Program-made: the position numbers
Assembly: GCA_963828735.1 (NCBI GenBank)
Contig: CAWHFW010000005.1
Location: 1,376,001-1,440,000 of the forward strand
Direction of reading: 5' to 3'
Length of the DNA stretch: 64,000 nucleotides
Origin: an uncultured Gemmatimonadales bacterium
Lineage (GTDB): Bacteria > Gemmatimonadota > Gemmatimonadetes > Gemmatimonadales > GWC2-71-9
In this document: one piece after another, positions 30,001-33,000 of the stretch
Layout: every line of letters begins with the position of its first letter
Position numbering within the stretch: the stretch's first letter is position 1

Positions 30001-33000
30001 CGACCGAGCACGGCGACGAGCGACTGCCAGGCATCGCGGTCCCGTTCGGTCTCGAGGCAGGCCACGAGCAGAATGGCCAGGACGCCCCCTCGCCACACCC
30101 CGATCGCGCCCGCGGCCGCGGCACGCGTGCGGGGATCCGGGTGGTGCAGCGCCTGACGCAACGCGTCGGCCGCGGCACCCTCGTGGATCTCTCCGATCGC
30201 CTGGACCGCGGCGACCCGCGCGCCTTCGTCCCTGTGGGTCAGCAGCCTCACCAGCTCGTCGACCCCTGACGGTTGCCCCAGCCGGCCCAGCAACGCCGCG
30301 GCATGGCGCACCGTCATCGGACGCCGGCTCGCCAGCAGCGGGATGACGAGCGGATACAAGCCTGGGATGCCGCCCAGGACGTCATAGTAGAAGGCCCGGA
30401 CACCCAGCGCCTCGCCTTCGAGCAGCCGATCGAGCACGACCTCCGCCGCGTCGAGCCCGATCCAGCGCAGCACCTCGGAAGCCCGCCGGCGCTGTTCCGA
30501 CTCCCGCTCGGCCTCGTCCACCAGCGCCTCGATGGCGCGCCGAGGAATGGCGCGCCGCAAGTGGATGCCGAACGTGCGCCGCTCGGCGGCCGGAACCTTC
30601 GGCACCAGCCGGACGAGGGCGAGGGCCGCAGTGAGCGCCACGTCCCAAGCCAGGCTTCGGATGCCCCATCCCAGCAGCTCGTGCAAGCGCACCGACTCCG
30701 TCCGCTGGCCCTCGATCAGCTCGACGCGCCGCTCGCCGCTGGCCCGCCGGTCCTCGGTCTGCCGGCGCTCGATCCCGAGGTACGTCGGGCGCCCCGGGCG
30801 TCGGCGCTCGGACCAGCTCCGACGCTCGATCTCACCGCGGGGGGCGAGCTCGGGCCGCTCGGCCGGAGGAGCGGCGGGGGGAGTCTCTTCGGGCGGTGGC
30901 GCCGGGAACTCCACCATCTCGACCTGAATGTTGGGAGAGCTGCGGACGGGTACGGCGTCGTGCGACAGTGCGCGGGCGAGCGCGAGAAGCTCGTCGGGCT
31001 CGGTACCGGCGGCGATTCGGATCGCCTCCACGTGGCGGGCGAGGAGGCGGCCCTTCAGCGTGAGGTCGTCGGGAATGACGCTCCATTCGATCCCGGCCTC
31101 GACCTCGAGCGGCCCGGTCTCGACGGCCGCGGCCGCCGCCGCGAGCGCCAGGTCCTGCGCCGCGTCGTTGCCTGGATCGGCTCGCAGCAGGGCGACGAGG
31201 TCGCCGAAGCGCTTGATGAAGGTGGACTTGGCGTCCACGGAGACCTCTCGCGGGGCGTCGATCTCAAGCTGCATGGACCTGGACCGCGCCGCAAGCCGGG
31301 CACGATCTGGAGGGGCGACCTGACGCGGACGCCCCACGCGTCGATGCATCCGAGGCCGGCACGCCGCGACGCCTTGACGGTCCGGTGCCGATACGTACAT
31401 TGCTCATATGCGACCCACCTGCAACTCGAATCGCAACCGCGCCGCCAATTACTACGCGTTCACGTAGGATGTCGAGCCGTCTCGGGTGCAGGATGGTGCG
31501 GTAGTTCCCCGGCCCGCTCGACCTGTTCGAGGGGCTTTTTTGTTGGCACCCATCGTGACCACTTCTTCGTCGGGAGAGACAATGAAGCGAGCGATCGTTC
31601 TGGGAGCTGCCATCGTCGTCGCGAGCGCCGTCGCGACCGCGGCACCTGCCGCCGCGCAGGCGGTCGGCGCGGACCTGGGCCTGTACAGCTCGTACGTGTG
31701 GCGTGGGTTGAGCCTCACCAACAAGCCGGTGGCGCAGCCTGACGTGTACGTGACCTTCCCCGCGGGGAAAGCCTCCATCACGGTCGCCGGGTGGGCGAAC
31801 ATCGACCTCGGCAAGTACGATGACCCGGACAACGACATCAGCGAGAGTGGAGGCCTCTCCTCTTTCAATCTCGCCGAGTTCGATCCCTACGCGGAAATCG
31901 CGTTCCCGCTGGGCAAGTCGACGCTCACCGGCGGGATCACCGGCTACTTCTACCCCAACGACGCCGGCCTCACCTCCGATTTCAACACGTGGGAGGTCTA
32001 CGGCAAGCTGTCCTTCGACGAGGTACTGCTCAGCCCGAAGATCTCGGTGTGGTACGACATCGACAAGATCGATGGGCTCTACGCCGAAGCCGCCCTATCC
32101 CACTCGTTGGCCCTCGGGGAAAGCCACTCGCTTGATCTGGGCGCGACGGCGGGATTCAATTCCGGACAGAATGCGGACCTGGACAGCAGCGGCATTCCCC
32201 AGGCCGACTTCTTCAACTTCCAGGACAACGGCTTCACCCACCTCGACCTGTCGGCCGGATTCCCGCTCACCGCGGGAGCGTTCTCGATCACGCCCGTGCT
32301 TCATTTCATCATCAATGGCGACGAGTTCACCAAGGTCACCTCGCCGACCAACAGCAGCGACACCAAGCTCTGGGGCGGGGTGACGATCAGCTGGTCCAAG
32401 GACTACGCCCCGGCGGCGGAAACGTCGGACAGCACCAGCAGCGAGTAGAGGCCGAGTCGGCTCGCAGGCTGCGAGCGCGGGCACGACGCCACGACGGGGG
32501 CATGCGTTCGCGCGTGCCCCCGTCGTATTTGCACATCGTCGAACCTACACACCGGGGAGCAGCTGCGTGAACGTCCTCATCTTCGGCGCCACCGGCATGG
32601 TTGGGCAGGGGGCCCTGCGCGAGTGCCTGCTCGACTCCGGTGTCGAGCGCGTGCTCGCCGTCGGGCGCTCGGCGACCGGGCGGCAGTCGCCCAAGCTCCG
32701 CGAGCTCGTGGTGCCGGACGTGGGGAATCTCACCGGCATCGAGGCCCAGCTCGCCGGGTTCGACGCGTGCTTCTTCTGTCTCGGTGTTTCGTCGCTCGGG
32801 ATGGCGGAGGAGCGCTACCGGCAGCTCACCTACGACCTCACACTGGCCGTCGCGCGCACCGTGGTGGCCGCCAGCCCCCAGCTCACATTCGTCTACGTCT
32901 CTGGCGCGGGCACGGACAGCAGCGAGCAGGGCCGCTCCATGTGGGCCCGGGTGAAGGGCAGAACCGAGAACGACCTGCGGCGCCTTCCGTTCAAGGCCGC

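Follow-up and report, generated by a model that had tools for sequence, protein, structure and literature searches.

What does a short, asparagine-rich open reading frame followed by an intrinsic terminator do in front of the gene for an outer-membrane porin? The locus lies in a 64,000-nucleotide stretch of a Gemmatimonadales genome (the window), and its preliminary description proposed that the ORF is a leader peptide whose Asn codons are read by the ribosome as a nitrogen signal, with a related leader in front of gltB at C5:285123. Our analysis indicates that the leader is a real, conserved element and very probably a ribosome-mediated attenuator, and that it probably acts as a classical transcription attenuator with Asn as its main regulatory codon. 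The parts of the locus are as follows.

31374..31401, + strand: sigma-70-type promoter, TTGACG-16-TACATT (-35 box TTGACG at 31374-31379, -10 box TACATT at 31396-31401)
31408..31467, + strand: leader ORF of 19 codons, MRPTCNSNRNRAANYYAFT-TAG, with its ATG at 31408, indicated by in-frame AAY bias
31415..31428, + strand: region 1, the predicted 5' arm of a protector helix, within the ORF (folding of the window leader only)
31423..31449, + strand: Asn codons 6 (AAC), 8 (AAT), 10 (AAC) and 14 (AAT), the predicted regulatory codons
31456..31467, + strand: Ala-Phe-Thr-TAG end, conserved in one porin clade despite synonymous substitutions
31471..31496, + strand: region 2, the predicted antiterminator arm, which also pairs with region 1 (lowest-energy fold when a ribosome masks Asn -12/-10)
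31508..31541, + strand: intrinsic terminator, with its hairpin at 31512-31535 and a U6 tract at 31536-31541; the 5' arm appears to be a lineage-wide scaffold sequence
31582..32448, + strand: putative regulated gene, a Gcw_chp (TorF-like) outer-membrane porin of 288 aa (PF09694, E 4.7e-7, above cut-off)
33708..48423, no strand assigned: adjacent putrescine/GABA cluster, context only, transcribed separately from the porin

A promoter search near the leader returned one site, compared with a shuffle mean of 0.1, and both the -35 and the -10 box are kept in the genus loci. Since the -10 box ends 6 nt before the ATG, which sets the putative start site, the porin transcript is predicted to be leaderless. 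Counted from the stop, the four Asn codons of the window leader lie at -14, -12, -10 and -6; of 2731 low-GC small ORFs picked at random from the same genome, only 1.6% have at least three Asn. A strict genome-wide scan for a promoter, a leaderless short ORF and a terminator, which missed a cimA leader found later, returned four sites. Two of these are the porin and gltB leaders, and the others are a three-Cys (CCC) leader before cysH-cysI and a Cys-rich small ORF. Contigs from 4 of 17 soil RNA runs cover pieces of the porin gene only and are uninformative for the leader.

The porin gene is present in 32 of 36 genus genomes, and the leader was found at 27 of the 30 best genus porin loci, bearing out the claim of a conserved leaderless Asn-rich ORF with a terminator. 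The remaining three loci comprise one with a short untranslated region, one leader without a stop and one locus without a leader. All 27 leaders contain Asn, at 8.1x the genome coding background (30x for AAT), and it is the only strongly enriched residue found in every one of them; Leu and Ile stand at 0.5x and 0.4x of background. AAT makes up 49/82 of the Asn codons, against 15.9% genome-wide, so that the AAT excess reported earlier stands. For Asp, His, Tyr, Phe and Cys, the same leaders use a T-ending codon in only 16/113 cases, indicating that the T-ending preference is specific to Asn. The bias is also strictly in frame, with 82 AAY triplets in the reading frame and 0 in each of the other two. 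Asn occupies position -10 in 24/27 leaders, -12 in 22/27 and -6 in 16/27. These leader counts exclude genomes flagged as unpublished, which the search tallies include. As related genomes are not independent samples, we use the enrichments to describe conservation and attach no significance tests to them.

The porin leader had previously been checked in one genus only. A wider set of 79 porin loci, which overlaps the genus set, contains 51 clear attenuators, and Asn is present in 51/51. Thirteen loci have no attenuator, 8 are tandem copies lying downstream, each with a short promoter of its own, 1 is degenerate, 2 carry another RNA element and 4 are too short to judge. This tally was curated by hand, with 6 automatically chosen ORFs replaced and 3 leaders added. 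In a second porin clade the leaders resemble MLLACNSNINNVNRPYWGAER, with 4-5 Asn and no Ala-Phe-Thr end. Among 79 named relatives of the porin, 78 are labelled Gemmatimonadales, Gemmatimonadaceae, Gemmatimonadetes or Gemmatimonadota, and one NC10. A gene of the putrescine/GABA cluster lies within 1.5 kb in 66/79 loci; the porin converges on that gene and lies outside its operon. In the window the cluster comprises a patA-like aminotransferase (convergent with the porin), an FAD oxidoreductase, a class III aminotransferase, gabT, a PotABCD-like ABC transporter, a carboxynorspermidine-synthase-like protein and an aldehyde dehydrogenase.

The leader at C5:285123 has both an antiterminator arm and a terminator, and the gltB leader with this architecture was recovered in 33/33 genus loci examined. 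Here AAT accounts for 39/64 Asn codons, again against 15.9% genome-wide. Asn is found at -10 in 28/33 of these leaders; one has Asn only at codon 2 and one has none. Of the five without Asn at -10, four keep CTT or ATT and the fifth is the Asn-free leader. The Leu and Ile codons noted earlier are likewise real features, with CTT enriched 9.5x and ATT 8x.

The gltB architecture, described before from three other genera, extends far more widely. Taking 40 of 57 matches from the same family, we obtained 36 gltB leaders representing 22 of 26 further genera, with 33 ORFs chosen by an Asn-blind rule and 3 by hand. In 32/36 an Asn codon precedes the antiterminator arm by 15-45 nt (6.7x), leaving 4/36 without Asn in that interval, and 21/22 genera have at least one member with Asn there. 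The same interval contains no Glu and is poor in Asp, Gly and Gln. AAY triplets number 67 in frame versus 6 and 3 in the other frames. In these genera the stop moves and the ORF shifts frame relative to the antiterminator arm. The C-terminal peptide of the gltB leader is therefore not constrained, and the placement of Asn exactly 10 codons before the stop, rejected as a general rule, holds only within the genus (24/27 porin and 28/33 gltB leaders). In a second family, hand-picked gltB leaders with terminators but different sequences are present at 15/30 loci; all 15 contain Asn, one of them only at codon 3. Outside the order, attenuator-like elements were seen in about 2 of 19 gltB regions.

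A model built on the gltB leader retrieves the porin leader as its second-best match in its own genome (E 0.034); of nine weaker matches there, the six inspected all lie in coding DNA. Across the order, 40 second-tier matches of this model were taken. Among them, hisG is preceded by leaders with His runs and metY-type genes by Met/Cys leaders; panB, an aminotransferase and a carbonic anhydrase also have leaders. The terminator 5' arm CCCGGCCCGCT, which the preliminary description treated as common to the Asn leaders, also occurs in the Cys-containing, Asn-free leader before the carbonic anhydrase, and near-identical arms are present in the His leaders. We therefore rejected the idea that the arm identifies an Asn family; judged from these sequences, it is a scaffold used throughout the lineage. 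Because the same scaffold bears His runs at hisG and Met/Cys codons at metY, it appears to be a device that reads codons.

Other genes at which the model found Asn-rich leaders encode a BBP2 porin, a HAD hydrolase and a GAF/sigma-54 activator whose architecture is NifA-like. Since the gltB model favours Asn codons, the activator and HAD genes were searched by protein instead, and a leader was found at 8/11 NifA-like activator loci and 22/29 HAD loci. In the pooled sets Asn is present in 12/12 NifA-like leaders (6.2x) and 21/22 HAD leaders (3.7x). Cys stands above Asn in both, at 10x, and occurs in the same proportions of leaders (12/12 and 21/22). Given this Cys enrichment, these leaders may read Asn plus Cys, or may be Cys sensors. 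No attenuator was found at the NifA-like gene of the window's own genome. The HAD hydrolase has only weak PDB matches, to phosphoserine phosphatases (E 0.035). The idea that its gene heads a uracil-catabolism operon was not supported, as it looks monocistronic in the loci read.

These results bear on the strongest alternative, that the leaders are attenuators of mixed slow codons (AAT, CTT, ATT, Cys and Arg) that respond to a general shortage of amino acids, with Asn as one input among several, and that the gltB leader in particular reads mainly branched-chain amino acids. CTT and ATT are common to the gltB leader and the neighbouring Leu/Val leader of leuA, where they are enriched 20x and 7x. 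In the genus gltB is divergent from leuA-ilvC, and in two second-family genomes, read by eye, it lies directly behind an ilvC-like gene. Some gltB leaders lack Asn, as noted above, and Cys co-occurs in three leader classes. Against this, Leu and Ile are below background in the porin leaders, Asn is the only strongly enriched residue shared by all 27, and the leuA leader avoids Asn, with 6 Asn among the 952 codons of 31 loci. We consider the mixed-codon explanation unlikely, though it deserves more weight than the two that follow. For the porin leader, sequence comparison and folding give good support to ribosome-mediated attenuation that is mainly Asn-reading; a purely Asn-reading gltB leader, as first envisaged, is not supported, given the enrichment of CTT and ATT and the Asn-free member (1/33), and this leader probably reads Asn plus Leu/Ile.

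We examined whether the RNA could switch in the manner that an Asn-reading attenuator demands. In the free RNA of the window leader, region 1 (31415-31428) pairs with approximately 31482-31496. When a ribosome occupies Asn -12 or -10 in the model, 31471-31477 pairs with the terminator arm at 31516-31522, and with the ribosome at the stop the region 1 helix and the terminator are restored. The modelled switch window spans codons -12 to -9 and overlaps the conserved Asn codons. Over these positions the terminator advantage falls from -12.9 to between -7 and -9 kcal/mol; as the terminator is thus still favoured at equilibrium, read-through would depend on co-transcriptional timing. The model is an equilibrium one with an assumed ribosome footprint. 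Placing a ribosome at -11 costs the terminator at least 3 kcal/mol in 17/27 porin leaders versus 23% of shuffles, leaving 10/27 with a smaller modelled shift. The corresponding figures are 26/33 versus 14% for genus gltB leaders and 31/35 versus 16% for those of other genera. This energy difference with its shuffle control replaced a noisier measure, pairing of the terminator arm, which at a strict cut classed 5/27, 5/33 and 6/34 leaders as switch-like.

Alignment of 49 gltB leaders showed the terminator to be 95.5% paired, with covariation above 500/500 shuffles. Pairing of the antiterminator reaches 92.2% and does not exceed 59% when the arm is slid. Its covariation in the 49 leaders did not exceed shuffles (40/500 were as high), so that this pairing mostly reflects conservation. 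For the porin set the antiterminator is predicted by folding, and the consensus fold of the porin alignment is weak (-1.2 kcal/mol).

A second alternative is an arrest peptide resembling SpeFL, in which a Phe-Thr-UAG end would stall termination of translation with a polyamine or amine, so that region 2 is covered and the terminator forms. The end of the porin peptide invites this reading: FT-stop is kept in 25/27 genus leaders, the Ala, Phe and Thr codons vary synonymously, the stop is TAG in 27/27 compared with 28% of genome stops, and the porin adjoins polyamine genes. SpeFL is reported to stall at UAG through aromatic residues (bioRxiv 10.1101/604074), and the porin leaders share with SpeFL a peptide with aromatic residue(s) that ends in UAG near polyamine genes. 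SpeFL, as described there, combines ornithine-dependent arrest with Rho-dependent termination, whereas at the porin leader the terminator is intrinsic and the C-terminus is not found in every member. AFT is missing from the second porin clade and from two genus members, though these retain several Asn, the modelled switch at -12 to -9 precedes translation of the end residues, and the gltB C-terminus changes frame between genera. Peptide arrest is accordingly improbable as the explanation of this leader. Least probable is that no ribosome-dependent switch exists, the ORF being incidental to a protein-bound RNA or to a terminator that is constitutive and leaky, a reading to which the weak porin consensus fold lends something but which conflicts with the strict in-frame AAY bias, the conserved start, stop and length, the position-dependent switch above shuffles and the pathway-matched codons on one scaffold.

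The preferred reading, Asn-codon attenuation, would operate as follows. A 70S ribosome would start at the 5' AUG. With ample Asn-tRNA it would reach the stop; with region 2 then either covered or sequestered by region 1, the terminator would form and the porin would be off. When Asn-tRNA is scarce the ribosome would stall on Asn, 10-12 codons ahead of the stop, and cover region 1, so that region 2 could pair with the terminator 5' arm and transcription would read through. Provided that Asn-tRNA tracks glutamine, the switch should open under nitrogen limitation.

The genome, which is 97.5% complete and 5.2% contaminated, gives reason to expect such tracking. In it asnS, gatCAB and two full asnB-type genes are present, as is a P-II gene beside amtB; asnA, glnS and glnD were not found in it. 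With no ammonia-dependent AsnA found, asparagine probably comes from glutamine-consuming enzymes. AsnB and GatCAB both draw their amide from glutamine, and Asn-tRNA should therefore fall with glutamine. The asnB-type genes, putative asparagine synthetases, lie in a glycosyl cluster and beside a PQQ-type dehydrogenase. No such leader was seen in front of asnS or the two full asnB-type genes of this genome. AspRS carries an RRDLG motif, which we take to be the discriminating type, and tRNA-Asn starts with U1-A72. Gln codons, which are amide-dependent here too, are not used as regulatory codons. The idea of a missing P-II was rejected, the protein being present in 48/61 genomes.

We also looked for a nitrogen operator common to glnA and the leader targets. 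A palindrome TGCA-N5-TGCA lies just before the -35 box in 13/29 glnA regions. The strict pattern is nearly absent at the targets (0/79 porin, 1/11 NifA-like, 0/29 HAD and 0/30 gltB loci), and a common operator was rejected. Less strict matches to it are present at amtB and at four of the porin, activator or HAD loci, and with 3/300 random pieces equalling them they hint faintly at a nitrogen role for the targets. Judging by the leader targets and the enzymes of the genome together, Asn-tRNA is probably a proxy for glutamine or nitrogen. More tentatively, and with rather less confidence than we place in the attenuator itself, we propose that the Asn-codon attenuators of Gemmatimonadales, at gltB, the amine porins and the NifA-like activator, may form an Asn-tRNA glutamine gauge that would replace GlnD.

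Classical attenuators of E. coli use rare codons for the amino acid they sense. Like those of trp, his, thr, leu, ilv and phe, the leaders described here have a leader ORF, a protector, an antiterminator and an intrinsic terminator. They differ in that Asn is sensed, that the targets neither make asparagine nor charge its tRNA, and that most of the ORFs are predicted to be leaderless. More generally, the sensed amino acid is neither product nor substrate of gltB, the porins, the NifA-like activator or the HAD hydrolase. Saad and colleagues, in 2012 and 2013, reportedly described an Asn T-box riboswitch in Clostridium acetobutylicum. There too the charging state of tRNA-Asn controls transcription, but the T-box binds uncharged tRNA and controls genes for Asn-tRNA synthesis, whereas here a translating ribosome would be the sensor. 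Near the porin leader no credible Rfam match, and hence no T-box, was found at E<=10 (three matches were at chance level), and no Rfam family reached its gathering score in 14 loci, gltB loci included.

The ilvB uORF of Corynebacterium and the cysS uORF of Rhodobacterales are reported to follow the same classical attenuator scheme. Leaderless polycysteine short ORFs in mycobacteria are described as charged-tRNA sensors before assimilation genes (bioRxiv 10.1101/834739); that system uses Cys and translation control, with no intrinsic terminator in the studied case, where ours uses Asn and a terminator. Control of glutamate synthase by nitrogen status at the RNA level is known from the glutamine riboswitch and a gltD riboswitch candidate (PMC8632094), which bind their ligand directly and have no leader ORF. 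An Asn-codon attenuator was not found in Rfam or in the literature searched, most subscription papers lying outside that search. In the available portions of their main text, neither 'asparagine' nor 'Asn' appears in bioRxiv 10.1101/834739, PMC4833913, PMC1262725, PMC11109978, PMC6429828, PMC8632094, PMC2965389 or PMC5314783, whose supplementary motif tables could hold a match.

If this reading is true, asparagine joins the amino acids read by leader-peptide attenuators, in a case where the attenuator serves as a proxy for nitrogen supply and senses the supply of an element, not the end product of a pathway. The Gcw_chp and BBP2 porins, the NifA-like activator and the HAD hydrolase would be assigned to nitrogen control, and through its NifA-like target the signal could be relayed to a whole sigma-54 regulon. 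The leader also offers a 140-nt genetically encoded sensor of asparagine or nitrogen. For the Gemmatimonadales, an abundant and little-studied order of soil bacteria, the result is a testable model of nitrogen control.

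The gltB promoter contains a palindrome resembling an ARG box:
C5:285105-285118 (locus L068), ARG-box-like palindrome in the gltB promoter of this genome, overlapping the -10 box.
Across the genus loci, 29 of 30 carry the palindrome with two mismatches or fewer, and it is perfect in 3. An argG-like gene is preceded by a perfect ARG box, and the genome encodes two ArgR proteins. ArgR may be an additional repressor of gltB.

Another palindrome, TGCA-N5-TGCA, was noted at two genes in this genome:
C5:272458-272476, TGCA-N5-TGCA before glnA.
C2:462223, a looser copy of the palindrome at amtB.
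It stands directly before the -35 box in 13 of the 29 glnA regions of the family, and we regard the palindrome as a candidate nitrogen operator for some regulator. In one genus member (G152, locus L430) glnA has in front of it a short ORF that includes Asn codons, along with a strong hairpin; the glnA region of this genome (L423) has a similar hairpin lacking a U tract. The motif GATGCTGGCTGGGGCG is common to the long glnA 5' regions of four genera (L424, L427, L431 and L433), and is possibly a further conserved RNA element.

Porin genes occur in tandem pairs in L104, L105 and 8 loci of the wider porin set. The attenuator is found only at the upstream copy in L104 and L105, and the downstream porin of the pairs has a separate short promoter of its own. 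Two porin loci, L323 and L328, have upstream regions without the Asn leader. At about positions 1200-1420 these contain a structured RNA that includes a hairpin resembling a terminator and had no match in Rfam; it could represent a new riboswitch that senses an amine or a nitrogen compound. Upstream of the HAD hydrolase gene of a related genome (G324, locus L276), four consecutive Gln codons replace Asn in one leader frame, possibly a glutamine-codon variant, the reading frame being uncertain.

Some translation genes occur more than once in this genome:
C2:40718-42119, second gatB, split over two frames.
C4:172777 and C5:2756475, two tmRNA genes and three tRNA-Asn genes.
These may reflect the 5% contamination of the assembly.

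Further leader elements were found upstream of other genes:
C5:1754299 (about 6170-6300 of locus L067), minus strand, leaderless ORF bearing a run of three Cys codons, together with a terminator, before cysH-cysI-cysG.
C5:1961445, leader-peptide attenuator upstream of a cimA-like gene.
The first is probably a cysteine attenuator. A leader-peptide attenuator also lies upstream of a metY-type gene, and that of leuA (locus L066) is present in 31 of 33 loci. Leader-peptide attenuation is in wide use among the Gemmatimonadales.
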